Source: an uncultured virus (IMG/VR IMGVR_UViG_3300035327_000120) (Duplodnaviria; Heunggongvirae; Uroviricota; Caudoviricetes). Taken from it: 20,000 bases of DNA. Made by a program: the position numbers and the translations under genes. The stretch lies in the IMG/VR virus record IMGVR_UViG_3300035327_000120. The stretch is one strand, 5' to 3'. Position 1 is the first letter of the stretch, and each line of letters opens with the position of its first letter. Positions 1 to 19,597 of the stretch are shown in pieces. The notes under the pieces are model-generated. The model was not told the DNA's origin. It did no database searches and saw nothing but the letters and a program-made list of their open reading frames with translations.

Positions 1-336
1 CCATATTACGAGGGTCGTAAATGAGAACAGCGACAACGTTGCTATTTTGACGTTGACACTTATCTCGACGCATCTGGAGTTGCGAGGGTCATCAAACATC
101 AACTCGAACAGCCGGGACATATATATCTTAGCTTTGCCACCGTACATAGACACTTTTATGTCTTGTTTGGCAACAGAGGTCATGCCCGATATTTTACTCA
201 CCTCGACGGTCAGCACACCGGAAGGCCATGCTGACTCAATCTCAATAAAATTCGGATTGAATGCGAAGCACATTTCATCAGGATAATATGCCACGGAGTC
301 CGCTACATTCAGTATCTTAAATGTCGTAGTTCTCAT
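1..336 (-). CDS. Hypothetical phage protein, probably virion-region; 3' end runs off the window
   Basis: Not in the ORF track. ATG at 336 overlaps the TGA of 333..827 (ATGA). Frame is open to base 1: MRTTTFKILNVADSVAYYPDEMCFAFNPNFIEIE... Confidence 0.75.
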   Translation of the reverse strand, partial: MRTTTFKILNVADSVAYYPDEMCFAFNPNFIEIESAWPSGVLTVEVSKISGMTSVAKQDIKVSMYGGKAKIYMSRLFELMFDDPRNSRCVEISVNVKIATLSLFSFTTLVIW

Positions 337-827
337 TCCAGTATATTGTTTATTTCGGCAAGGCTCTCCGCAGTATAAAGCATGAGTTCCTTACTCATCA
401 GTTCTAATTCTTCATTCACAGCCGTGGTGAAAATGTCATTGAATTGCTTATCTCGGAACAGCTTTGTGCCGTCAGTCATAATCTTATGCGCAATGGCTCC
501 GGCAAAGGAGTTCAGGCCACGTTCATGCGGAGTGTATTTCGTGTTCCTCCGCTTCGCAGGGATAGGAGCAACAGATATTCCTTTGTCTATTATCCATTGT
601 CGTATGATGCCGACAAAGCCTTTGGGAACTTTACCACCGGCGCGGCCTCTCTCCATTGCGAGGAATGATTTACTGCCATACAGCGTACCAACATTACCCG
701 ACACAGACACGGTCAAAGAGTTCACTGACCGACCACTGGCATTTCTACCATAGTCGGCCATAGCCTGCGCGACCCTTTGGCGCACATTCTCTAAGTGGAG
801 TTGGAGGGTTTCTTCAATCGTTGCCAT
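333..827 (-). CDS. Hypothetical phage protein, possibly HK97 gp10-like tail/neck completion protein
   Basis: 164 aa ORF in the operon downstream of terminase. SGRSVNSL...FLAMERGRAGGK...IRQWI...IAHKIMTDGT resembles morphogenesis proteins; the family call is tentative. Confidence 0.6.
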   Translation of the reverse strand: MATIEETLQLHLENVRQRVAQAMADYGRNASGRSVNSLTVSVSGNVGTLYGSKSFLAMERGRAGGKVPKGFVGIIRQWIIDKGISVAPIPAKRRNTKYTPHERGLNSFAGAIAHKIMTDGTKLFRDKQFNDIFTTAVNEELELMSKELMLYTAESLAEINNILE

Positions 828-847
828 GCCGTTATCCTATGCACAAG

Positions 848-1333
848 TTATTGATTGCGTGTTTCGTCGGTGCAGATACTGATACCCTTTGTTTCCTCAA
901 GAGTCAGAGTAAGCACCACGCCGGTAACATTTTGGTCGAGGTGGTCATACAGCACTTGGTATAAGACATCACCATCAATAGGCTCAAAGAGTCCACTCTC
1001 GTTGAGGGCCTTGACAAAGCGGACAGCCAGACGCTTCATAGCCTCGATTATACCGTCATTCTTGGAGCCTTCAAAATCGAAATCAGTAACACAGACAAAA
1101 GCAATCTGTGTGTTCGGAGCATCTTTGACCTCGTTCCACTTGAATGTCAGAGTGCCAGAGGGCGGCAGAACGTATATCACCGTGGGCTTCTCGATTTTGT
1201 CAAGTTCCACATTAGCCTGCGCCCAGTTCATAAATCGATACTCTATCTCCGGGCCGAGGGTTTCAGCGATTGAGCGTATCTTACCCTCAACCGTGCCTAA
1301 CAATTCTTTGGTGTCAAATCCAGTATTCTCCAT
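848..1333 (-). CDS. Hypothetical phage protein (tail-terminator-like size and position, unconfirmed)
   Basis: 161 aa acidic ORF; its start shares base 1333 with the upstream stop codon. Confidence 0.6.
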   Translation of the reverse strand: MENTGFDTKELLGTVEGKIRSIAETLGPEIEYRFMNWAQANVELDKIEKPTVIYVLPPSGTLTFKWNEVKDAPNTQIAFVCVTDFDFEGSKNDGIIEAMKRLAVRFVKALNESGLFEPIDGDVLYQVLYDHLDQNVTGVVLTLTLEETKGISICTDETRNQ

Positions 1334-1935
1334 TACTTACGTTGCTTTTGTCGATTGATATATTGTTTGTTCAGGCGCTTCTCATACTCCTGCTGCTCGT
1401 TGTCATTCTTCATGCAAGTGTAGATGCGCACCCACGCCACGCTATACACCTCGTCTTGGTTGGTAATCCCCATACGGCGGGCGTACCAGTCTATGATGCC
1501 GAAAGTGCCAAAATTCAAGTCCTCAACGCCGGCGGCTATTTCCTCCGAGGTATGAGAGGGGGCAATCTCTTGGAATAACTTGTTGATACGATTAACCTCT
1601 TCCTTGACAAAGTTCATAAATCCGAACACGTCAAAGACATTCAGCGTATATACCTGCGGAGCCTCAATCCCCATAAGGATTTTGAACACCTCGGCAGCAG
1701 GGTCGGCGGTATTGGCTATGCGACTAAGGTCATCGAGTTGCCCGTAGGTTATCATGTTCAGATTGGCCGGAGTTTCTTTGCCACACACGAATGCCGGGCG
1801 TTCAGCGTGAGATAAGAGTTCCAGCAATTCTTTTTGATGTTCTTCTGTGCAGCAGGGCAAAAGCACAAGAAACTCCCCGTAGGTGGTGAGCTTCATACGT
1901 TTTCTCTTGCGTGTCTTATTCTTTGCCATATTCAA
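1333..1935 (-). CDS. Hypothetical Bacteroidales phage protein
   Basis: 200 aa ORF right after terL, with a C-terminal FGTFGIIDWYARRMGI motif. True start probably one of the ATGs just downstream of the listed TTG. Confidence 0.7.
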   Translation of the reverse strand: MNMAKNKTRKRKRMKLTTYGEFLVLLPCCTEEHQKELLELLSHAERPAFVCGKETPANLNMITYGQLDDLSRIANTADPAAEVFKILMGIEAPQVYTLNVFDVFGFMNFVKEEVNRINKLFQEIAPSHTSEEIAAGVEDLNFGTFGIIDWYARRMGITNQDEVYSVAWVRIYTCMKNDNEQQEYEKRLNKQYINRQKQRK

Positions 1936-1997
1936 AGTTACTTACTTAATACATTGCAGATTGAGTATTCCGGGAGATACTTAGTGAACGAGAGGGG

Positions 1998-3458
1998 TCA
2001 GTAGTTATCCTTTCTCTCGATACTGTATGTTGTCGGTTTGGCCGTGATTGGTGCCGGGCTGTCCTTCTGGAAAAATTCTACCATGCCGGTAAGAACATCA
2101 GGAGCATCATCGTGGCCATTGCGTCCAACTTTACGATAGCCCCGGACAGCATTGGCAAACTGCGGCCACCTCAACTCCCAGCCGACGGGGAAGAATATCA
2201 GATTTTGCACCTCGGCAGATCGGGTGAAAATCCTGACTTTCTTGTTGGCTCCCTGACGGAACGAAACAAATCTCATACCTCGTCCCACCGGACCGCCCAG
2301 CATTCTGACATTGCGCTCGACATTGCGAGCAAAGCCACGGCCGCCGTTGTTGCTCTCAATCTTCGCCATTTGGGTTTTATTCCTCATCAGCATTTCAGCA
2401 GTCTTAGGCTCCGTGTACTCCATAGGTTTGTCGGTGTAGAGAACATCAGTAACATACATACCTACCTTTGTTTCGATGTAGCAGACCGAACACAAAAAGT
2501 CAGAGCCAGTATCCGCAGTATCGGTGTAGTTCTTTCGCAGGCCCGGTTCAAGCGGTAAAGCCTCGTATGTCCGCAGGGTGTTATACATCAGACCCTCAAG
2601 AGGCTTGGGGTTCTGCATATACTGGGTGTCGAATACAAACTGATTGGCCGCCTCAATCTTGCGCAGTTCCTCAACGGTATGCTTAAACTCCCATAGGGCG
2701 CGCTCGTTGCCGTCCCCATCAAGTTCCAAGCAGGGAATACTCAAAACCTCCCATTCGTCAGGCTCCAGTCCCATAAGATAGCCGCACAGGTCGCGCTCGT
2801 GGAGCCGTTGCATGATAATGATTATCGGGGTATTTCGGGAGTTGACACGGTTACGAATAGTTGTCTCAAAATGCTGATTGACCTGCTCACGAGCATTGTC
2901 ATTCAGAGCATTATCAGGCTTAATCGGGTCGTCTATCACAATGGCGCCCCCAAAGAGGGGATTTTCTTCATCTGCACTCTCGACAGCACCAGCACCAAAA
3001 CCCGTAACCTGACCGAGAGAGGACGTGGCATAGACACCGCCACCGCTGTATGTGTCCCATCGGCTTTTCGTATCAGCACTGCGTCCAATCCTTATGTTGA
3101 ACAGCCGTTGATACTCTGGAGAGGTAACGATATTCTTCACAGCAACGGAGTTGTCGAGAGCGAGGTTGCCGGAGTATGAGAGGTGGATAAACTTTGCCGC
3201 CGGATTGAGCGCAAGCCCCATAGCAATGAAATTCTTGACCGCTATCTCTGTCTTTCCATAACGAGGAGCAATGTTAATCAGCAAACGCTTTATCTTGCCT
3301 TGCAGTACGAGGTTCAGTTTGTCGCAAATAAGTCGGTGATGTTTGCCTACGACGAAGCGTTTCCCGTTATTCAGGTGTTGGAAGAAAAACCGGGAAAAAT
3401 TCAGAGAGTCGCTGAGTAGCCATCTCCGCAATACTTCATCTGGAGCATATTCCATCAA
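1998..3458 (-). CDS. terL: Phage terminase large subunit
   Basis: Walker A LLINIAPRYGKTE, Walker B IVIDDPIKP, IIIMQRLHERDL, QYMQNP, nuclease-domain DTADTGSDFL and HDDAPDVLTG. Confidence 0.95.
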   Translation of the reverse strand: MMEYAPDEVLRRWLLSDSLNFSRFFFQHLNNGKRFVVGKHHRLICDKLNLVLQGKIKRLLINIAPRYGKTEIAVKNFIAMGLALNPAAKFIHLSYSGNLALDNSVAVKNIVTSPEYQRLFNIRIGRSADTKSRWDTYSGGGVYATSSLGQVTGFGAGAVESADEENPLFGGAIVIDDPIKPDNALNDNAREQVNQHFETTIRNRVNSRNTPIIIIMQRLHERDLCGYLMGLEPDEWEVLSIPCLELDGDGNERALWEFKHTVEELRKIEAANQFVFDTQYMQNPKPLEGLMYNTLRTYEALPLEPGLRKNYTDTADTGSDFLCSVCYIETKVGMYVTDVLYTDKPMEYTEPKTAEMLMRNKTQMAKIESNNGGRGFARNVERNVRMLGGPVGRGMRFVSFRQGANKKVRIFTRSAEVQNLIFFPVGWELRWPQFANAVRGYRKVGRNGHDDAPDVLTGMVEFFQKDSPAPITAKPTTYSIERKDNY

Positions 3459-3907
3459 TACTTGTTTTCGAGGTCTTGAATGAAGTCCTGAGCCTCCTGT
3501 TGTGTCATAGGTTTAGCAGACTGCACTGTGGCCGTGATTTCCTGACCCTCAATATATCCTCGGCTCTTGCCTTTGGTTTTGAGGTGGAATATTATTGCCG
3601 TGAGGTTGCCGTCATTGATAGCCTCGGTCAGCTTAGACTCCGTAAAGTCCAGCAGGGCCTCATCTACATCTTTGAGCATTTCGTCAAGTTCAGGGTGGTT
3701 GCTCCGCCAGTAGTAGAGCGTCCGTCGAGCGATATTGAGCGCAGCAGCCGTGGCCGACATATTGCCGGCCTTCTTGGAGTAAACCTCGGCGATTTTAGCG
3801 TAGGAGAAAGGCAGCTTGTGTTCCTCCCCCTGCGGTGTTCTGGTGTCTTTGGTCGAGTCCATTTTTTTATGTGCAAACTGTGAACGATTTTTTCTTATCC
3901 TATGCAC
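3455..3907 (-). CDS. terS: Phage terminase small subunit (alternative start ATG 3862)
   Basis: HTH (NMSATAAALNIARRTLYYW) and AIIFHLKTKGKSRGY motif; ATGA overlap with terL. Confidence 0.8.
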   Translation of the reverse strand: MHRIRKNRSQFAHKKMDSTKDTRTPQGEEHKLPFSYAKIAEVYSKKAGNMSATAAALNIARRTLYYWRSNHPELDEMLKDVDEALLDFTESKLTEAINDGNLTAIIFHLKTKGKSRGYIEGQEITATVQSAKPMTQQEAQDFIQDLENKY

Positions 3908-3921
3908 AAGTTTTTAATTCT

Positions 3922-5145
3922 TCAAACTCCTGCAAAGGGTTTCAGATATGAGAACGGAGCCGTCAGTTCACCCTTGCGAATGAGCGTTGCCCTCTCGATT
4001 ACTCGGTCGGGGTCAACGTTCATCAGAGCAGGGAAAACATGCTCCATTAACTTTTCTCCAAAGTTCGTCGACGCCTCTACCGGTATAGCGTTAGGCAGAG
4101 TGTCAACAGCCATTACGCCGACAGCAGAGCCGGACATAGCGTCCGTTTCCTCCCACTTGGCTCTGTCAATGCCGTAGAACGGATTGTCATGCGTAGAGGG
4201 ACGTACTGTCGTTTCCACGCTTCCGTTGATGTCGCAGGTAACGTCGCCTACCACATCTATTCTGGTAAAGCCGAGCATATCCATAGTGAGATACTTTGGC
4301 TGTGCCGGCGCCCAAAAGTGGCAGGGGATAAAGATTGTCGTTTTTCCTGAGAACTTACCAAAGTCCGAGCAGTACATATCAGGGTGAGCTTTGAAGTGTT
4401 CTCTGTCGTACTGGTAGCCGTCCTTTCTCTTTACGAGGTCAGAGGTCTTGGCCACGGTGAAAATCGGGTTATCTATCATTTCTTCAGGCATCGTGAGAAA
4501 TTCTTCGACTGACACATATCTCACGCCGAGTTCATTCAGGATAAACTGAGCCCCGGCAGAAGCACGGCCATTTCCAGTAACGAGAATACGAATGTCATTG
4601 AAGCGGTCATGCTCCAGTTCAGAAATTATCGGCCGGCCGAGGTTCAGAATATCGGCCACCGTGAATTTCTTATCCGGAGCAGGGAGATTGAACAGGTCGT
4701 TACGCAGTCCATACAGTCGGAGCGAGTTATACACGCCCATGACTCCAGCCCAAAAACTGAAAGACACAAGGCGCTTGCCCTCTCTGGTCAGATACTCGTA
4801 GTCGGTCAGGGTGATGTTTTTCTCAATCATCGCCCGGCAGAGATTTTGATTGTACGGTTGCATCTTTCCTATATGGGCGAAGAAGAAATAATGTTTGTCC
4901 GGGATAAGGCTCTTTATGCTGACTTCCTTAACTCCGAAAAGCCAATCACAAGAAGCCATATCCTCTGAAAGAACTGCGCCGGCTTTAATGTATTCCTCAT
5001 TCGGAAAAATTCGCAGACAGGAGGGTTGAACATATATCTCAAGGCCCGGATAGGTCGATAGCAATTTCTTGCACTGCGCCGGGGTTATCGGAGTGCGATT
5101 GTCAACAGGGATTTTCGTTTCCCTTAGAATACCTATGCGTTTCAT
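3922..5145 (-). CDS. Saccharopine dehydrogenase / lysine-ketoglutarate reductase-like NAD(P)-dependent oxidoreductase (AlaDH/PNT superfamily)
   Basis: IGILRETK..DNRTPITP, VQPS..RIF.NEEY..AGA, FGVKEV, FFFAHIGKMQPYN, DYEYL, Rossmann VTGNGRASAGA, GDVTCDINGS, MAVDTLP. Confidence 0.88.
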   Translation of the reverse strand: MKRIGILRETKIPVDNRTPITPAQCKKLLSTYPGLEIYVQPSCLRIFPNEEYIKAGAVLSEDMASCDWLFGVKEVSIKSLIPDKHYFFFAHIGKMQPYNQNLCRAMIEKNITLTDYEYLTREGKRLVSFSFWAGVMGVYNSLRLYGLRNDLFNLPAPDKKFTVADILNLGRPIISELEHDRFNDIRILVTGNGRASAGAQFILNELGVRYVSVEEFLTMPEEMIDNPIFTVAKTSDLVKRKDGYQYDREHFKAHPDMYCSDFGKFSGKTTIFIPCHFWAPAQPKYLTMDMLGFTRIDVVGDVTCDINGSVETTVRPSTHDNPFYGIDRAKWEETDAMSGSAVGVMAVDTLPNAIPVEASTNFGEKLMEHVFPALMNVDPDRVIERATLIRKGELTAPFSYLKPFAGV

Positions 5146-5840
5146 TCTGTCACCTCACTTTCCATTTGCTTTTTGGCGAGTTCCAAGATTTTGCAGAACG
5201 CCATGTTGCTTGACTTGATTTCGTATTTCTTGCGGATCTGCCCGATAAGCTGGAGGTAGAAATCCTCATTTTCATCACCGTCAACGACCATTACGATGTC
5301 ATTCTTGCCGTTCTGCTCGTTGATTATACCGACCAGTTCATCAAGCAGCTCCATGTCTTTGTGATAGAATACCACGCAGCATGAATAATGCTCGCTGGCC
5401 ACGGAGAAACTTACCCCCTCCGTGGTGATAGGCTCCAGTTCGTCGATGTTGACATGGGCAAAACTCTTGAAATCCACACTCTGAATTTCTGCAAACATTC
5501 TTTTCAGAATGCCTTTGTCATCTTCACCGTGAAGCGAGTTGTGAGAGAGTTGCAGAGCCACAATCTCGTCCGGGGTCATGTCAGCCTCATCAGCGTAGAT
5601 AACAGGTACCTCCCTGTACCGTAGTTTTACTGCGGCCCTATATCGGTGGTGGCCGGAGATAATAACATATCTCCCAGTATCGGTCTTTCGGTAACAGCCT
5701 ATGGCGCTGCTTAACCCTCCAGAGATACGAATGTTCTCCACGAGCCTGTTGAAATCATGCTCGGACATCTGATTTGCATTGACACTCGCCTCATCTATAA
5801 GGCTTATGTCAATAGAGGCTTGTTTCCATTTATTACTCAT
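5142..5840 (-). CDS. ParB/sulfiredoxin N-terminal domain protein
   Basis: NANQMS..DFNRLVENI...YVIISGHHRYRAA matches the ParB/Srx core; QLSHNSLHGEDD follows. ATGA overlaps at both ends. Confidence 0.85.
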   Translation of the reverse strand: MSNKWKQASIDISLIDEASVNANQMSEHDFNRLVENIRISGGLSSAIGCYRKTDTGRYVIISGHHRYRAAVKLRYREVPVIYADEADMTPDEIVALQLSHNSLHGEDDKGILKRMFAEIQSVDFKSFAHVNIDELEPITTEGVSFSVASEHYSCCVVFYHKDMELLDELVGIINEQNGKNDIVMVVDGDENEDFYLQLIGQIRKKYEIKSSNMAFCKILELAKKQMESEVTE

Positions 5841-7855
5841 TTCTTACGGCTTATAAACTGTTTGTACTTGGCGATAATATCAGTAAACTCTCCCTCGGTG
5901 CCGAGTTCACAAGTGTAGACTAAATGGTTTTTCTCCTGCGAAACTTTCTTGAATAGGCCACGGTACTTCATTGATACCGGATTGTGAGTGTAGACTTTCG
6001 TTTCACAAGTTACAAAGTCATCGAGGGTGCGCCGGGACAGGAATTTCTTCACCCAGCGAGATTTTACGCAGAGCAATATCAACTTGCTCAATCTCGGTAT
6101 GGCATTATTGGTGCAGAAATCAGTTACCAGCGAAATATCGTAGTCTTGCTTACTGAACTTGAAGCCGAAAGCCCCAAGCAGATAATCCTCATAGAACACG
6201 AGGAACGGAAAGGTTACTTTCGATACAATCTGTACCTTCTTGACATAATGCTTTTGCAACTGGAACACCACGTTTGCCGCGACGTGCCGGATTTTCAGTT
6301 TGGCAGGGTCGTCAATTACCAAATCATCTGGCGGCTCCTTGAAAGAGGGCATCTTCAACTTGACGGCCTTATACGTTACTGCGGCTTCCTTTTTGCGTGA
6401 ACAATAGAAAATTTTGTCGCCGACCGAGGCTATCTTCTGGAGGTGTTCATGGTAGGGGAAAGTGCTTACTAAGAACAGAGTCGTATTCTCCGGCAGAGTT
6501 TCCACGAGGTTCAGATACTCGGTTGAGTGAATTTCAAAACTCTCATTGTAATCGCTATGCTTGCGCAGGGCGCTTACTGCGGTTCTGCTTTTGCCGTAGT
6601 CATCAAAGTTAAAGAACACATCGCTGCCAACTTTTACAGCGTCATTGATAGTTCCAAGCCGGTAGTCGCAGTTGGTAAGGAACTCCACCATGCGTGTAGC
6701 CGCTTTGGTCGCATTTTGTATGGTGGTAGGCATTGCCGCCTGAATAGCCTCAAAACTCTTCTTGTAAAAGTCGGCCGATTTCAGATAGCGGCATATCTTC
6801 TTGAATACGATTAGGCAGGCGACCTGCTTAACTGGGTCGTCGCCGTTCAAATCTTCGAGGAACTGGAACGTGCTGTCATACTTGATGCGCAGACCCTCCC
6901 GGACAATCGCATACAAGATATGGTTAAACTCGTCGTTATTAAACACTATGAGTTTTTTCAACTTGCTCAATCGTACCTCGGTGGAGAATGAATAGGGATT
7001 TACGCACACAAGCTGATCGCCAGTGTTCTTCACTAAGACATTCAGCATGGATTTAGTCAAGTCCACCGCCGAGTGTGCCGTGGCACCGACGTCCATTTCT
7101 CTAATCGAAGAAAAGAATATCAGGGAGGGAGGCAACGCAGGAAGAGCCGAGGGTAACTTTATGGTCGATACCATTTGCTCTACCGTCTTTATGGCCCGAA
7201 AGTCATCTTCATTATGTTTCAGGGCATAATCTACATACCGATAGGCGAACATTATGCAGTTCATTATCTCCTGAAAATCGGTGGTGGTATTGAACAGGCG
7301 AAACTCTACCGTGCCTCTCACAAAGTAGGAAGCAATATTGACAAAGTGCCGGACATAGCCCTTGTTGTGGCTGTTCTCAAAGGCTCGTTGCAGTTCAGAG
7401 AATGATTGAGCCTTTTGCACTCTCTCGTAAAATTCCAGAGTTGGAGAGGGCCGGTATCTCTGCTCATCGCTGTACGGCGGCAAATGGCAGAGGTCTTTCA
7501 GGAGGTCGGTCGCATGGTAGGTCAGATAGTAGATGTTCTTCAGTTCATCGAGCGTTAAGTCGCCCACGAATATATGAACCTGAACGCCGCAGTCGCGTCG
7601 GGCTACCGCGCCATTTTCAGCGCAGCTTTCGACTACCTTACGGAAGGTGTCGAGGTCTTTATGGCATAGGTGCATGGGAGGCGTATTTATCTCGCCTCCG
7701 TATCTGGCCGATATAGTACCGCGTGTGCCGTCCGTGTTGTGGATTACCTCTTCCTCGTCCCAAGTGTAGTCAGAGGGAAAGTATATCTTTCTCTTCTCCA
7801 CGTTGGCAAGCTCCAGTTCTATGCCAAATGTTCTTTCTGTGATGCGTAGTTCCAT
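5837..7855 (-). CDS. 672 aa fusion: amidoligase (COOH-NH2 ligase, GCS fold) + degenerate DNA adenine methylase-like domain + Mom-like GNAT domain
   Basis: Start moved to ATG 7855 because the ORF-track extension lies inside a tRNA. N-term TFGIELE..TDGT..EINTPP..CGVQVHI..VN..GTVEFR is amidoligase-like. C-term FLVFYEDYLLGAFGF..LVTDF..IPRLSKLILL..TKVYTHNPVSMKYRGLF is like phage GNAT/Mom-like domains. Middle-domain call is weaker. Confidence 0.75.
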   Translation of the reverse strand: MELRITERTFGIELELANVEKRKIYFPSDYTWDEEEVIHNTDGTRGTISARYGGEINTPPMHLCHKDLDTFRKVVESCAENGAVARRDCGVQVHIFVGDLTLDELKNIYYLTYHATDLLKDLCHLPPYSDEQRYRPSPTLEFYERVQKAQSFSELQRAFENSHNKGYVRHFVNIASYFVRGTVEFRLFNTTTDFQEIMNCIMFAYRYVDYALKHNEDDFRAIKTVEQMVSTIKLPSALPALPPSLIFFSSIREMDVGATAHSAVDLTKSMLNVLVKNTGDQLVCVNPYSFSTEVRLSKLKKLIVFNNDEFNHILYAIVREGLRIKYDSTFQFLEDLNGDDPVKQVACLIVFKKICRYLKSADFYKKSFEAIQAAMPTTIQNATKAATRMVEFLTNCDYRLGTINDAVKVGSDVFFNFDDYGKSRTAVSALRKHSDYNESFEIHSTEYLNLVETLPENTTLFLVSTFPYHEHLQKIASVGDKIFYCSRKKEAAVTYKAVKLKMPSFKEPPDDLVIDDPAKLKIRHVAANVVFQLQKHYVKKVQIVSKVTFPFLVFYEDYLLGAFGFKFSKQDYDISLVTDFCTNNAIPRLSKLILLCVKSRWVKKFLSRRTLDDFVTCETKVYTHNPVSMKYRGLFKKVSQEKNHLVYTCELGTEGEFTDIIAKYKQFISRKK

Positions 7856-7867
7856 GCAAATAATGAT

Positions 7868-7942
7868 TGGAGCGAGAGCAGGGACTCGAACCCCGGACTC
7901 CGGCATGGTTAGCCGGCGCATTAGCCACTGTGCTACTCTCGC
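7868..7942 (-). tRNA. Non-canonical tRNA-Gly, anticodon ACC, A33, encoded CCA
   Basis: Minus strand folds as GCGAGAG TA GCAC-AGTGGCTA-ATGC G CCGGC-TAACCAT-GCCGG AGTC CGGGG-TTCGAGT-CCCTG CTCTCGC T CCA. Perfect 7-bp acceptor and 5-bp anticodon stems, TTCGA T-loop, Gly identity G1-C72/C2-G71/G3-C70/U73/C35C36. Confidence 0.93.
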
Positions 7943-7947
7943 ATATT

Positions 7948-7975
7948 GGCGTGAGGGCTATTCAACTCTCACGCC
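7948..7975. other. GC-rich hairpin between the DUF488 stop and the tRNA 5' end
   Basis: GGCGTGAGGG-ctattcaa-CTCTCACGCC inverted repeat; no U-tract on the minus strand. Confidence 0.65.
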
Positions 7976-7981
7976 GTATGT

Positions 7982-8401
7982 TCAGAGGTCATCAAACAAT
8001 GAGGGCGGCTCAATCTTCTCTGGCTTCTTGGGAGCAGGAGGAGTTGACACAAATTCTTTTATCTCTACCCCTGTCTGCTGTGTAAGATATTGAGCAAGCA
8101 GGTGCCTGTGGCAAAAGTCATCGGGCTTTTCATAGCAACATAAGGCCACATCAGAGCCGCCGCAGGTTCTCTCCAGTCTCTCTATAAACTCGTATGGGTC
8201 GAGCCGGGAGAGGATTTGCCGATATGCGTCAAGGTATTGCTGGTGTGATGCCTTTTTTACCATCCACGGTGTAGGCGCCACATCAGACATCACTACTGGC
8301 ACGGAAAGGAAGCGAGGCTGCCAACAGGCAATGCTCACAATCTTTATGCCCTCCTTTGCCAACGCTTTCGCATTGCCGAAATATGAAGTGTAGATTTTCA
8401 T
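7982..8401 (-). CDS. DUF488-family protein
   Basis: MKIYTSYF...VAPT...Y...Y..IL..LDP...DVALCCYEKPDDFCHRHLLA; ends in PSLFDDL. Confidence 0.85.
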   Translation of the reverse strand: MKIYTSYFGNAKALAKEGIKIVSIACWQPRFLSVPVVMSDVAPTPWMVKKASHQQYLDAYRQILSRLDPYEFIERLERTCGGSDVALCCYEKPDDFCHRHLLAQYLTQQTGVEIKEFVSTPPAPKKPEKIEPPSLFDDL

Positions 8402-8814
8402 GCTGATTTCTTTTTCGGGTTGATGTATTCCACGACGTCGAGGTGAAAGAGGGTCATGACTTTTTCTATGTTCCTGATCGGCATATTTCTGTATCCGTTG
8501 AAGAAAGCAGTCAGGCAGGTATTGTCGATATCGGTTTTCTCCGCAACCTCTTTCACTTTCATTCCAGATACAGCAAAATGCGATTTGAGAATTTCAGGCA
8601 GTTCCGAGGGAGGCAGAGCAGCACGGCCGGCGGTTTTTAAGCCGATAGACAATCCCAGTTCTTCCATTGCTTTGACAAACTTGGGATATGAGAGAGTACG
8701 AGAGCCATTGAGAAAAGCATTGAAATTGCTCGAAGCCACTCCAATAACCTTGCAAAACTCCCGCTGCTTAATGCCGGAGTCCTCCAACTTTTTTCTTATC
8801 GCTGTTCGTATCAT
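8398..8814 (-). CDS. Tandem XRE-type HTH transcriptional regulator, 138 aa
   Basis: Two HTH repeats (GIKQREFCKVIGVASSNFNAFLNGSR; GMKVKEVAEKTDIDNTCLTAFFNGYR). Start set at ATG 8814, just downstream of a consensus promoter. Confidence 0.85.
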   Translation of the reverse strand: MIRTAIRKKLEDSGIKQREFCKVIGVASSNFNAFLNGSRTLSYPKFVKAMEELGLSIGLKTAGRAALPPSELPEILKSHFAVSGMKVKEVAEKTDIDNTCLTAFFNGYRNMPIRNIEKVMTLFHLDVVEYINPKKKSA

Positions 8815-8835
8815 AGAGTCATTGATTTTATAGTG

Positions 8836-8867
8836 CAAAGTTAAGCAAATATTATCATTTTTACAAA
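8836..8867 (-). promoter_or_regulatory. Bacteroidetes sigma-A promoter for the modification/packaging operon
   Basis: Minus strand TTTG-N20-TAACTTTG fits the -33 TTTG / -7 TAnnTTTG consensus. Confidence 0.75.
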
Positions 8868-8951
8868 CTTTGCGTGTCTTATTTTCGTCGTTTCTAAACA
8901 ATATTTCCGAGGTTTTTGTTGGTGATTTATGAGTGCATAAGTTCTTCAAAA

Positions 8952-8983
8952 TTTGTTCTATTGCCGATTTTTGATTACTTTTG
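8952..8983 (+). promoter_or_regulatory. Bacteroidetes sigma-A promoter, plus strand, driving a small RNA
   Basis: TTTG (8952-8955)-N20-TACTTTTG (8976-8983); no credible plus-strand CDS follows. Confidence 0.75.
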
Positions 8984-9038
8984 CACTAAGTTTTATTCCG
9001 TAACAAAAGTCCTCTTACAGAGGCCATCTTTGTTTCAG

Positions 9039-9068
9039 GTTAAAACTTATTTGCTTATAAGCAAGTTT
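9039..9068. repeat. 30-bp repeat copy 1, GTTAAAACTTATTTGCTTATAAGCAAGTTT
   Basis: Identical to 18899-18928; contains the palindrome TTGCTTATAAGCAA. Confidence 0.95.
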
Positions 9069-9099
9069 GCCCGTGAGGGTCGACTTGCTTTCTTTGTTT
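9059..9099 (+). terminator. Intrinsic terminator
   Basis: AAGCAAGT-ttg-CCC-GTGA-GGG-tcg-ACTTGCTT with a GNRA loop, followed by TCTTTGTTT. Confidence 0.75.
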
Positions 9100-9144
9100 A
9101 TGGGGTGGAGAGTGGCAGAGTCTTTGCGGCTTTATCATGCCGGA

Positions 9145-9321
9145 TTACCGATTTACCCTTAAAAACCATTCTCGGTATTTCGACCATTGTCCGAGCAGCC
9201 AGTCGCACACTAAGTCCACCAGTATGAGGGGCAGAAGCACCGGGGAAAGTACGACAACTTGGAACATGAACAGGAGCTTTCGGACGCTCACATTCTTCTT
9301 GAGGATTATCTTTTTCTTCAT
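9145..9321 (-). CDS. Small predicted membrane protein, 58 aa
   Basis: Not in the ORF track. MKKKIILKKNVSVRKLLFMFQVVVLSPVLLPLILVDLVCDWLLGQWSKYREWFLRVNR; leader motif lies just upstream. Confidence 0.65.
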   Translation of the reverse strand: MKKKIILKKNVSVRKLLFMFQVVVLSPVLLPLILVDLVCDWLLGQWSKYREWFLRVNR

Positions 9322-9333
9322 CTTTGTATTGAG

Positions 9334-9350
9334 TTAAACTTATTTGCTTA
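9334..9350. repeat. Core motif copy, TTAAACTTATTTGCTTA
   Basis: 12 nt upstream of ATG 9321. Confidence 0.85.
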
Positions 9351-12335: not shown

Positions 12336-12350
12336 AACTTATTTGCTTAT
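12336..12350. repeat. Core motif copy, AACTTATTTGCTTAT
   Basis: 3 nt upstream of ATG 12332. Confidence 0.85.
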
Positions 12351-12583: not shown

Positions 12584-12623
12584 TGTTATTTTGATTTAGA
12601 TGTTTTTGTTTTATTTGATAGTA

Positions 12624-12655
12624 CAAAACTAATCAAAAATTATCTTTTATACAAG
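12624..12655 (-). promoter_or_regulatory. Bacteroidetes promoter candidate
   Basis: Minus strand CTTG-N20-TAGTTTTG upstream of ATG 12583. Confidence 0.6.
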
Positions 12656-18265: not shown

Positions 18266-18283
18266 TTAAACTTATTTGCTTAT
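18266..18283. repeat. Core motif copy, TTAAACTTATTTGCTTAT, next to hairpin TCCGG-CC-ttgttt-GG-a-CCGGA
   Basis: In the intergenic leader of erf, about 65 nt upstream of the ATG. Confidence 0.85.
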
Positions 18284-18898: not shown

Positions 18899-18928
18899 GT
18901 TAAAACTTATTTGCTTATAAGCAAGTTT
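18899..18928. repeat. 30-bp repeat copy 2, in the early-operon leader
   Basis: Identical to 9039-9068; 18 nt upstream of ATG 18880. Confidence 0.95.
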
Positions 18929-18941
18929 TTGCTTATCTTTG
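18910..18941 (+). promoter_or_regulatory. Promoter candidate for the repressor
   Basis: TTTG (18910-18913)-N20-TATCTTTG (18934-18941). Confidence 0.65.
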
Positions 18942-18968
18942 TTGTAGTTGTTGATTATGTTTGTGATG

Positions 18969-19000
18969 CAAAGTTAGTGATAATTTTTGAATTGACCAAT
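18969..19000 (-). promoter_or_regulatory. Early (lytic) promoter candidate
   Basis: Minus strand ATTG-N20-TAACTTTG. Confidence 0.65.
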
Positions 19001-19111
19001 CAAATCTTATCATTTTTACGGTTGCAATCGCAAATAATCGCATTTTTAACATTTGGCTCCAGTCAGAGGTGCCGAGGAACTTGTTTAACTTAAAAAGATA
19101 GCGTCGTAAAG

Positions 19112-19597
19112 ATGACAGAAGAAGAAAAGGTTGCCAACTGCGTTGACGCGGCTTCCATACGCGAGCAACTGCTTGAAGCACTCCACATGACAGCAGGGGA
19201 GCTTGCTACTGCACTGGGCATAAACTACCAACGCATTTACGACCTCGGAACAGGTCGCACTAAGAAATTCAATCCCGGCATGGTTCGCCTGATAACAAAG
19301 ACTTTTCCACAGGTCAATCCACATTTCTTATATACCGGCAACGGTTCTGTATTGCTCCCAAATGGTGGCAATAATCAGAGTGCCGGTCTTGGCGCTCCAG
19401 AACTTGCTGAAATCTTGGCGATGTCTAAGAGGTTGCTTCAACTTATGGAAAGGCTTGATGCAAAAGACTCAGACCTGCGCGATCGAGAGAATAAACTTAT
19501 TGCTCGTGAGGCAGAGGTCAGTCAGCGCGAAAGGGCCGTCAATGATAGAGAACTTGAAATCCGCAAACGCGAACTTGAAAGTTCCCCAGTATCATAG
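19112..19597 (+). CDS. CI-like HTH repressor with C-terminal coiled coil
   Basis: MTAGELATALGINYQRIYDLGTGRTKK HTH, FPQVNPHFLYTGNG; divergent from the early operon. Confidence 0.8.
   Translation: MTEEEKVANCVDAASIREQLLEALHMTAGELATALGINYQRIYDLGTGRTKKFNPGMVRLITKTFPQVNPHFLYTGNGSVLLPNGGNNQSAGLGAPELAEILAMSKRLLQLMERLDAKDSDLRDRENKLIAREAEVSQRERAVNDRELEIRKRELESSPVS

Follow-up and report, generated by a model that had tools for sequence, protein, structure and literature searches.

A predicted small RNA gene of a Muribaculaceae prophage with a seed complementary to tagged leaders dispersed over the element

Introduction

To our knowledge, immunity based on antisense RNA is known from a handful of enterobacterial phages, and one operon is controlled in each of them. 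The c4 RNA of P1 and P7 (immI; Rfam family C4, RF01695) is cut from the transcript that carries its targets and controls a single operon, icd/ant, through two short loops. The CI RNA of P4 is processed from the leader that it regulates and acts by premature termination within one operon. The OOP RNA of lambda and the sar RNA of P22 are encoded in cis: each overlaps a single target gene and is perfectly complementary to it over a long stretch. The excerpts of a 2025 review of phage-derived small RNAs that we draw on mention P1/P7 c4 and cover lambda OOP and P22 sar as phage antisense RNAs (PMC12197685). They also describe STnc6030 of the Salmonella prophage BTP1, a 786-nt antisense RNA encoded in cis to one structural gene, the tailspike gene, which is expressed in the lysogen and silences this lytic gene of an incoming related phage by base pairing, with escape mutations in the paired region (PMC12197685). 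Neither the string "Bacteroid" nor an example from the Bacteroidota occurs in these excerpts (PMC12197685). A literature search on RNAs of Muribaculaceae and Bacteroides phages found no description of the RNA or of the tag reported below. Muribaculaceae are an abundant, little-studied family of gut bacteria, and as hosts they lack Shine-Dalgarno pairing.

Here, we describe a locus at positions 8952-9099 (+ strand) of the window, by which we mean the whole 20,000-nt stretch of viral DNA that was analysed. Its sequence gives good support for a gene of a predicted small RNA of ~112 nt, carried by a temperate phage of mouse-gut Muribaculaceae. The RNA contains a seed that is the complement of a short tag found in many leaders of the same phage.

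This locus resembles P1/P7 c4 in that a small structured phage RNA faces leader sites upstream of start codons, where trans action and lytic repression are our proposal, and in that a few specificity bases change together in RNA and targets, among heteroimmune types in c4 and among five types here. Unlike c4, this RNA combines a promoter and a terminator of its own with a single linear seed and at least 15 dispersed targets; it is convergent to the operon with its nearest targets instead of being processed from a target transcript, and its host phylum is Bacteroidota, not Proteobacteria. The C4 covariance model (RF01695) finds no match in the window or in the 351 nt around the locus, and the joint change of seed and tags is a functional likeness to c4, not evidence of homology. 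With P4 CI the locus would share an RNA, not a protein, as the proposed immunity factor and the recognition of repeated short sequences in the phage's own leaders, whereas the gene stands alone here, convergent to the early operon, and its tags extend over ~73 kb. Like OOP and sar, the RNA is short, has a promoter and a terminator to itself and lies antisense to early transcription in a regulatory region of a temperate phage; unlike them, it overlaps no conserved CDS, and its conserved part is a seed of 11-14 nt that is matched at distant sites. STnc6030 is similar in being a prophage RNA with base pairing to lytic genes of phages (expression and silencing are proposed in our case), but here a short seed RNA is combined with many tagged leaders. 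Given the lack of a model match, its own promoter and terminator, the dispersed targets and the absence of target-gene overlap, the RNA is not a member of the c4, P4 CI or OOP/sar families. It does show the generic traits of trans-acting small RNAs of the seed type: its own promoter and intrinsic terminator, conservation across relatives, and a seed that is the most conserved part, is predicted to be unpaired and is complementary to sites near several start codons.

Architecture of the RNA locus

The window lies inside a Muribaculaceae prophage in which nearly all genes are on the minus strand. The positions of its integrase gene (G000:C1:2012748-2013968) and of the start of a host pseudouridine synthase gene (2087874) limit the element to ~75 kb. 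Its genes encode, among others, a large and a small terminase, a ParB-like protein, an amidoligase and a tRNA-Gly. The RNA gene is located between the end of the early block, whose last ORF is 9145-9321, and the next block, and it is convergent to the early block. Beyond the RNA locus, this early block encodes PcfJ/PcfK-like proteins, a replication initiator, a VRR-NUC-like nuclease, a helicase, NinB, SSB, an exonuclease and an Erf-like annealing protein. Downstream of the RNA locus, no gene of the antirepressor type was detected. The features of the locus and its immediate neighborhood are as follows:

8398..8814, minus strand: gene of a Cro/C1-type HTH protein, which is the divergent neighbour of the RNA gene only in this lineage
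8836..8867, minus strand: promoter TTTG-N20-TAACTTTG, back to back with the RNA promoter, with the HTH gene and the packaging block downstream
8952..8955, plus strand: -33 element TTTG of the small-RNA promoter (pattern TTTG-N18-22-TAnnTTTG)
8976..8983, plus strand: -7 element TACTTTTG of the small-RNA promoter (TAnnTTTG, Bacteroidetes type)
8988..9099, plus strand: predicted small RNA of ~112 nt, its 5' end placed from the -7 box
8988..9048, plus strand: 5' stem-loop, at the base of which the RNA 5' end is paired with the first bases of the tag complement
9044..9057, plus strand: seed, the complement of the leader tag, AACTTATTTGCTTA
9059..9099, plus strand: intrinsic terminator, a hairpin at 9059-9090 with a GTGA loop, followed by the T run TCTTTGTTT at 9091-9099

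In relatives, a ParB-like gene takes the place of the HTH neighbour. The RNA is predicted to end at 9099, 46 nt before it would reach the stop of ORF 9145-9321.

The initial annotation of this DNA had assigned a consensus promoter and a GNRA terminator to the plus strand, and both were recovered. The promoter, TTTG-N20-TACTTTTG, is of the Bacteroidetes and not of the E. coli type: it is a full match to TTTG/TAnnTTTG, which we take to be the promoter type of this phylum, and it is absent from the output of a sigma-70 scan of the window. Four TTTG/TAnnTTTG matches, this one included, occur in the window compared with 0.41 expected, and four or more were reached in none of 200 shuffled sequences. 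The terminator is the hairpin with the GTGA loop listed above.

The region 8988-9099 is predicted to fold with an energy of -35.0 kcal/mol, compared with -19.5 ± 2.9 kcal/mol for shuffled sequences (z = -5.3; none of 200 as good), and scores 82.1 bits with the covariance model R1. Several pairs of the stem are G-U on the plus strand, where the opposite strand would have A-C mismatches. The 14-mer AACTTATTTGCTTA spans the foot of the 5' stem and an open stretch, with positions 9049-9058 unpaired in the predicted fold. A search of RNA-library runs found the sequence in 24 of them, and four metatranscriptome runs were compared with the whole window; as these consist of assembled contigs, their depth, flat over all 30 window bins, is uninformative on transcription.

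The RNA gene in related phages

We collected variants of the locus by exact-pattern scans of viral, genome and metagenome collections, from the regions upstream of the neighbouring ParB-like gene and with a covariance model. Three chance pattern matches in unrelated sequence (L125, L140, L133) and one locus at a contig edge (L143) were left out before counting, which gave 26 distinct variants, with Muribaculaceae or close Bacteroidales named as hosts. Every one of them (26/26) has a TAnnTTTG box at a distance of 54-98 nt upstream of the seed, with variation in its two middle bases and in the spacer, and a TTTG is found at N18-22 from the -7 box in 11 of 27 variant rows. The T run is on the plus strand throughout. 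The genomic position is kept as well: the locus converges on the end of the early block, and its promoter and the next one stand back to back. A second copy of the RNA is present in the own genome of the prophage (G000:C1, ~852.66-852.83 kb), with both promoter boxes retained around a different spacer, a different stem-loop sequence and a terminator that shows compensatory changes.

The succession of stem-loop, open seed and terminator was predicted for all 16 variants that were folded, and in 15 of these the plus strand was more stable than its complement (means of -42.2 versus -35.3 kcal/mol). For the terminator, an alignment of 17 sequences has 93.0% of its cells paired, compared with 33-58% when the partners are slid, and four of its 11 pairs show changes on both sides. 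Its covariation score of 0.271 exceeds that of the shuffled alignments (0.175 ± 0.016; none of 500 as high). The invariant columns of the alignments A1 and A3 are those of the seed, and the terminator loop is the only other invariant primary sequence. The top of the 5' stem-loop differs in sequence among the variants; this variable element could not be aligned by MAFFT, and its conservation is judged from single-sequence folds, without a pair count.

A protein-coding function of the locus finds no support in these variants. The initial annotation had stated that no plus-strand CDS is present; this has to be qualified, since a mechanically called TTG-start ORF (8916-9227, 103 aa) crosses the unit, but it does so in this window only. 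No reading frame is conserved on either strand: all three plus frames contain stops in 15 of 16 variants, and the same proportion holds for the minus frames.

The covariance model finds the RNA in six of 151 genomes of the family, the own genome included, and a BLAST search with the locus gave matches in 21 of 401 family genomes, again including the own genome. Only G026 matches over the full length, while G171, G279 and G091 match the part comprising seed and terminator; the other matches inspected are limited to the 20-45 nt next to the promoter, or to a terminator or coding sequence that is unrelated. No Rfam family could be assigned: a cmscan of the whole window (E ≤ 1) returned the tRNA and two sub-threshold chance matches, and a scan of 351 nt around the locus (E ≤ 10) three unrelated matches of 15-20 bits, far under their gathering scores. 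Taken together, the promoter box, the fold that is kept despite sequence drift, the covariation in the terminator and the greater stability of the plus strand support a real RNA gene, and the stand-alone plus-strand unit suggested by the initial annotation is thereby strengthened.

Copies and placement of the leader tag

The seed AACTTATTTGCTTA has five exact copies in the window, at 9044, 9337, 12336, 18269 and 18904. All five are on the plus strand, in agreement with the uniform orientation claimed earlier. The chance expectation is 0.21 copies, and five were reached in none of 200 shuffles. In the sense of the mRNA, the tag reads UAAGCAAAUAAGUU and comprises 11-14 nt. The copies outside the RNA gene, together with two promoter elements at the early leader, are:

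9337..9350, minus strand: leader tag 15 nt before ATG 9321 (58-aa ORF, last gene of the early block)
12336..12349, minus strand: leader tag 3 nt before ATG 12332 (72-aa DpnD/PcfM-like protein)
18269..18282, minus strand: intergenic tag that immediately follows a GC-rich hairpin, 67 nt before ATG 18201 (Erf-like annealing protein)
18899..18928, minus strand: extended tag, complementary to the RNA over 30 nt, in the leader of the first early gene (ATG 18880)
18910..18941, plus strand: rightward promoter TTTG-N20-TATCTTTG, facing the repressor-like gene 19112-19597
18969..18976, minus strand: TAACTTTG, the -7 box of the leftward early promoter; this promoter and the rightward one are face to face

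The complementarity of the RNA to leaders is thus borne out by exact 14-mer copies and, at the first early gene, by the expected 30-nt identity (9039-9068 versus 18899-18928, 100%). This extended tag is the third-best R1 match in the genome, with 36 bits. Four start codons had been named as lying downstream of the 14-nt core. For three of them the distances are 15 nt (ATG 9321), 3 nt (ATG 12332) and 23 nt (ATG 18880), but the tag is not adjacent to the fourth, ATG 18201, from which it is separated by 67 nt. At the early leader, the -33 element of the rightward promoter 18910-18941 is the TTTG of the tag; the arrangement TTTG-N20-TAnnTTTG is found at this leader in four other lineages as well, five in total, with a spacing of exactly N20.

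The initial annotation had envisaged four targets within ~10 kb, which is too few. In the own genome, G000, AACTTATTTGCTTA occurs at ≤1 mismatch 25 times in forward and once in reverse orientation, compared with no match for a reversed-pattern control, and all 25 forward copies are located in two prophage areas. At ≤2 mismatches, this prophage contains 16 tag sites between 2014033 and 2086794, the RNA's own included, and the second prophage region contains 17, one of which is the RNA copy of that region; the opposite strand has no tag in either of the two. The RNA of this prophage therefore faces 15 tagged sites besides its own, up to ~63 kb away and spread over ~73 kb. Some "long" copies extend the match to the RNA into the 5' arm of the terminator stem; one of these follows the integrase gene, and similar copies are found in other lineages.

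In the type I lineage, to which this phage belongs, 27 of 33 tags precede an ATG by 9-24 nt, whereas a TAnnTTTG box within the 80 nt upstream is present for only nine of the 33, indicating that the type I tag follows start codons and not promoters. The core AGCAAATAAGT, the central 10-11 positions, carries 1.8-2.0 bits per position, and the flanks are unconserved. Downstream of the tag on the mRNA strand, an A-rich stretch is followed by the ATG. Across eight phage regions, 116 tags are on the gene strand and three on the opposite strand, and variation is located at the first and the last two positions of the 14-mer. The ORFs of the plus strand, including those for the integrase, the repressor-like protein, a GmrSD-like protein and the defence-like inserts, carry no tag in their own orientation.

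The 14-bp duplex of seed and tag has a predicted energy of -15.9 kcal/mol. For the whole RNA, duplexfold gave -52.8 kcal/mol with the targets compared with -42.8 ± 7.5 kcal/mol for the background, values that are dominated by unrealistically long interior loops. Three observations sit less easily with pairing. There is no tag in the packaging block (window 1-8400 and ~7 kb beyond). Substitutions in the tag that G-U pairing tolerates outnumber those it does not by 21 to 9, and by 10 to 6 in the core, which is no clear enrichment given a T-rich motif and non-independent copies. In predicted leader folds, the tag is no more accessible than its surroundings, with an unpaired probability of 0.57 for both tag and flanks and a more open tag in 14 of 27 leaders.

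A role of the tag as an enhancer that pairs with 16S rRNA was also considered and rejected: no 6-mer or longer word of the tag complement occurs in the 16S gene, and the tag-16S duplex of -7.8 kcal/mol does not differ from that of shuffled tags (-8.0 ± 1.6 kcal/mol). In its own right, the tag could serve merely as an address label, could help ribosomes to load where leaders lack Shine-Dalgarno pairing, or could in addition be a DNA site.

Seed types and their matching tags

The initial annotation had suggested looking for covariation of RNA and targets in related phages, and such covariation is found. The seeds fall into five types, and in the phages examined for each type the tags match the version of their own RNA:

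Type I, AACTTATTTGCTTA: G000 (two regions), G026, G405
Type II, ATCTTATTTGCAT: G091, G171, G279, G404, G406-G408, G027, G088
Type III, TTTCTTATTTGCA: G401, in seed and tags
Type IV, TTATTATTTGCA: G410, with a C-to-A change at an otherwise invariant C
Type V, TCTTTATTTGCA: G110, with a 1-nt insertion common to seed and tags

The seed of G091, G171 and G279 is ATCTTATTTGCATT, and these genomes contain 15, 12 and eight copies of this version at ≤1 mismatch, respectively. The copies share a single orientation in G091 and G171 and are divided four to four across the contigs of the fragmented G279 assembly. The tag version of the window, by comparison, has at most two copies in each of the three genomes, none of them exact, whereas G026 has both the seed and the tags of the window's version. 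In G410, the type IV word is present in the RNA and at 13 further sites, all 14 on one strand, and it ranks first in an unbiased count of strand-biased 10-mers. Six type V copies are located on the contig and strand of the RNA in G110, where the common version is missing. G403 is less uniform, with one further tag on the RNA contig, which differs after the core, and mixed tags elsewhere in the assembly. G409, which contains the RNA as does G410, has tags with the common core and other flanks.

What this covariation means has to be stated with care. Because the seed of the RNA is itself a copy of the tag, the covariation shows that the copies within one phage are kept alike, not that they pair, and taken alone it is compatible with a role of the tag at the level of DNA or protein.

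Proposed mechanism

Based on these observations, we propose as the most likely reading, to which we give slightly better than an even chance, that the RNA acts in trans as an antisense RNA, pairs with the tagged leaders and lowers their expression, thus serving as a phage-type-specific factor of immunity or timing. The RNA would be transcribed rightward from a host-type promoter (sigma-A, TTTG/TAnnTTTG), and its own intrinsic terminator would end the transcript. Between the 5' stem-loop and the terminator, the complement of the 11-14 nt tag would be exposed. Its presumed targets are the 15 tagged sites, which are located in 5' leaders or between cistrons and typically precede the start codon by 9-24 nt, and the strongest pairing, over 30 nt, is expected with the leader of the first early gene. 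Pairing may lower expression by hindering ribosome loading on leaders that lack a Shine-Dalgarno sequence, or because the duplex is cleaved. In this way, one RNA could hold down many lytic genes in the lysogen and likewise those of superinfecting phages that share its tag type. The genes of the opposite strand (integrase, repressor-like gene, defence-like inserts) have no tag. During lytic growth, early read-through would run into the convergent RNA promoter and produce the full complement of the RNA, and the RNA could thereby be switched off.

A more far-reaching version of this proposal is tentative, and we think it rather doubtful: a single RNA, instead of a network of protein operators, would silence all units of its own phage type that carry the address label, in the lysogen as well as upon superinfection. 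The at least five specificities would then represent heteroimmunity groups, and release would be brought about by early read-through, through promoter occlusion and the full complement.

Alternative explanations

A serious rival, although we regard it as unlikely, is that the tag acts mainly at the level of DNA or transcription, either as an operator for a repressor or activator of the phage or as an ops-like loading site for an antitermination factor on the non-template strand; the RNA would then merely hold one copy, and its own function would be unrelated or secondary. Some tag copies do resemble DNA sites, which counts against our main reading: many tags of types II-IV directly adjoin the -7 box of a consensus promoter, at positions of about +1 to +14; in G406, eight promoters have a pair of copies spaced by 66-67 bp, one upstream of the -33 element and the other at the start site; and the conserved rightward promoter at the early leader has the TTTG of the tag as its -33 element. 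Internal cistrons of G406 that have no promoter are tagged as well, however, and for type I a promoter box within 80 nt (9/33) is the exception and an ATG at 9-24 nt (27/33) the rule. A protein-site model accounts equally well for the type-specific covariation, but the tag is non-palindromic and without dyad symmetry, its orientation is strict (116 to 3), and no NusG-like, sigma, antiterminator or RNA polymerase family was detected among the prophage proteins scanned (31, 54, 11 and 65 proteins). Such a model also leaves unexplained why a structured, separately promoted RNA keeps only the complement of the tag invariant and unpaired. A second alternative is a role of the RNA mainly in cis, to which we assign a low probability. 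According to this explanation, the convergent promoter and terminator at the junction of early and late blocks would block or modulate read-through from the early operon into the HTH gene and the packaging block, by transcriptional interference and by pairing with the RNA so produced, and the matches to distant leaders would be incidental. The conserved position, with the last early gene converging on the locus and the next promoter back to back with that of the RNA, would suit such a function, for which lambda OOP and P22 sar are precedents. A pure cis role does not need sequence conservation, though, yet the seed is invariant while the rest drifts and changes in step with distant tags in five types, and no conserved CDS is overlapped on the opposite strand.

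The RNA might also pair with the tags and activate, stabilising the 5' end of the mRNA or aiding translation, as a helper of the lytic phase and not as an immunity factor. In types II-IV the tag is at the extreme 5' end of the mRNA, where a duplex could protect from 5'-end-dependent decay, and the sign of the effect is not fixed by the sequence. We nevertheless consider activation quite improbable: no inhibitory structure that pairing could open is predicted to enclose the tag (unpaired probability of 0.57, as for the flanks), the RNA promoter is a plain host-type consensus that is expected to be active in the lysogen, and the tag is missing from the genes on the strand that is expected to be expressed there. 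Finally, the locus might contain no RNA gene at all and represent a decayed minus-strand copy of a leader and gene start, an explanation to which we attach hardly any probability. It takes its appeal from type I, where the minus strand has the order of tag, A-rich leader, ATG and an ORF of 13-14 codons. The match to the early leader had indeed been described as extending over the start codon, and a minus-strand ATG is present inside the RNA locus, but in the window it opens an ORF of only 13 codons and it is restricted to the type I variants (4/16). In types II-V, no minus-strand ATG follows the RNA's copy of the tag, and the peptide of the type I ORF differs between the two copies of G000, which argues against a decayed gene start. 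The conserved plus-strand promoter box, T run and G-U pairs point in the same direction.

Implications

If the trans-acting antisense reading is preferred, the locus may be regarded as a new variant of phage antisense-RNA control. This is well supported for the gene and its network of complementary sites, and proposed with respect to expression and effect. One free-standing RNA faces at least 15 tagged sites over ~73 kb, compared with one operon in the known cases. If the pairing holds true, the tag type would provide a simple rule for mutual immunity among the prophages of these bacteria, and the tagged leaders would offer a handle on translation start in the Bacteroidota. One RNA and one tag of 12-14 nt might then also serve as a compact programmable switch for gene control in Bacteroidales.

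The genome G000 itself carries two prophage regions of the same tag type. Their coexistence would not be predicted by simple mutual exclusion and thus counts against the main reading; double lysogens of one immunity type are known.

Promoters associated with the tag sequence

At the early leader, two predicted promoters face each other within window positions 18910-18976, with predicted start sites ∼15 nt apart:

18976-18969, minus strand, –7 box of the leftward early promoter (within 18910-18976)
18910-18941, plus strand, rightward promoter, whose –33 element is the TTTG of the tag, the short motif that precedes many phage genes

This face-to-face arrangement, again with the TTTG of the tag as –33 element, was found in five lineages. 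The promoter pair at 18910-18976 has the look of the phage's genetic switch.

In G406, another genome carrying a type II RNA and tags, we identified eight near-identical promoter cassettes (L170-L173). Each contains a pair of tag copies spaced by 66-67 bp, of which one precedes the –33 element and the other sits at the start site (for example, 23105/23171, 27137/27204, and 66104/66171). One such double-tag pair is present in G091, a further genome of this kind. Within the window, three minus-strand promoter-like regions (8825-8867, 12613-12652, and 18998-19019) resemble each other beyond the two promoter boxes and belong to the repeat families D6 and D7. In the promoter-like region at 8836-8867 on the minus strand, the spacer holds TATTTGCTTA, which is the core of the RNA seed in opposite orientation.

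A long tag copy next to the integrase gene

A long copy of the tag is located at G000:C1:2014029-2014054 (stretch L147 of the prophage in its own genome, G000), 65 nt past the integrase stop codon on the plus strand; its 26 nt are identical to the seed region of the RNA. An integrase transcript reaching 2014029-2014054 would carry the same anti-tag sequence as the RNA, the complement of the tag, at its 3′ end. The last gene on the minus strand has a stop codon that overlaps with this long copy.

In the RNA-library run X5, one contig fuses the sequence immediately left of this integrase-side copy (G000:C1:2014028) to window position 18900. The contig passes through the 26-nt repeat TTAAAACTTATTTGCTTATAAGCAAG, so that the ∼72.8 kb between both copies are skipped. 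An assembly artefact may be unlikely given the shortness of this repeat. The sample could instead contain a related element, a recombinant form, or a derivative that has undergone the deletion.

Additional RNA-like loci

A second region of G000 (C1:729927-862663) contains 17 tags of the same type as those of the first prophage and a paralogous RNA gene at 852.66-852.83 kb. It consists of two parts separated by ∼75 kb free of tags, and may be either one interrupted prophage or two elements. In stretch L171 of G406, positions ∼31590-31730 harbor two more seed-like words with a hairpin between them; a second, short hairpin and then a T run come after these words, and the final 24 nt are identical to the seed and terminator arm of the RNA. 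This locus may encode a second, shorter anti-tag RNA or be a remnant.

Other genes of the prophage

The following genes were identified in the prophage:

Window 7868-7942, minus strand, tRNA-Gly gene (ARAGORN anticodon ACC; Rfam tRNA score 51.3 bits), overlapping the mechanical start of an amidoligase-like ORF
L149:6057-6368 (G000:C1:2054057-2054368), minus strand, tagged gene whose 103-aa product contains a WYL_2 domain (E = 1.6e-16)
L148:9087-19302, minus strand, reverse transcriptase adjoining a 2726-aa protein
L148:7259-7862, minus strand, HicA/HicB pair
L149:11042-12847, plus strand, GmrSD-like nuclease
L147:9510-10226, minus strand, protein with a Tad2-like (Thoeris anti-defence) domain

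Pfam describes WYL_2 as an Sm-like SH3 beta-barrel; that a phage protein of this Sm-like kind could act as an RNA partner is pure speculation.
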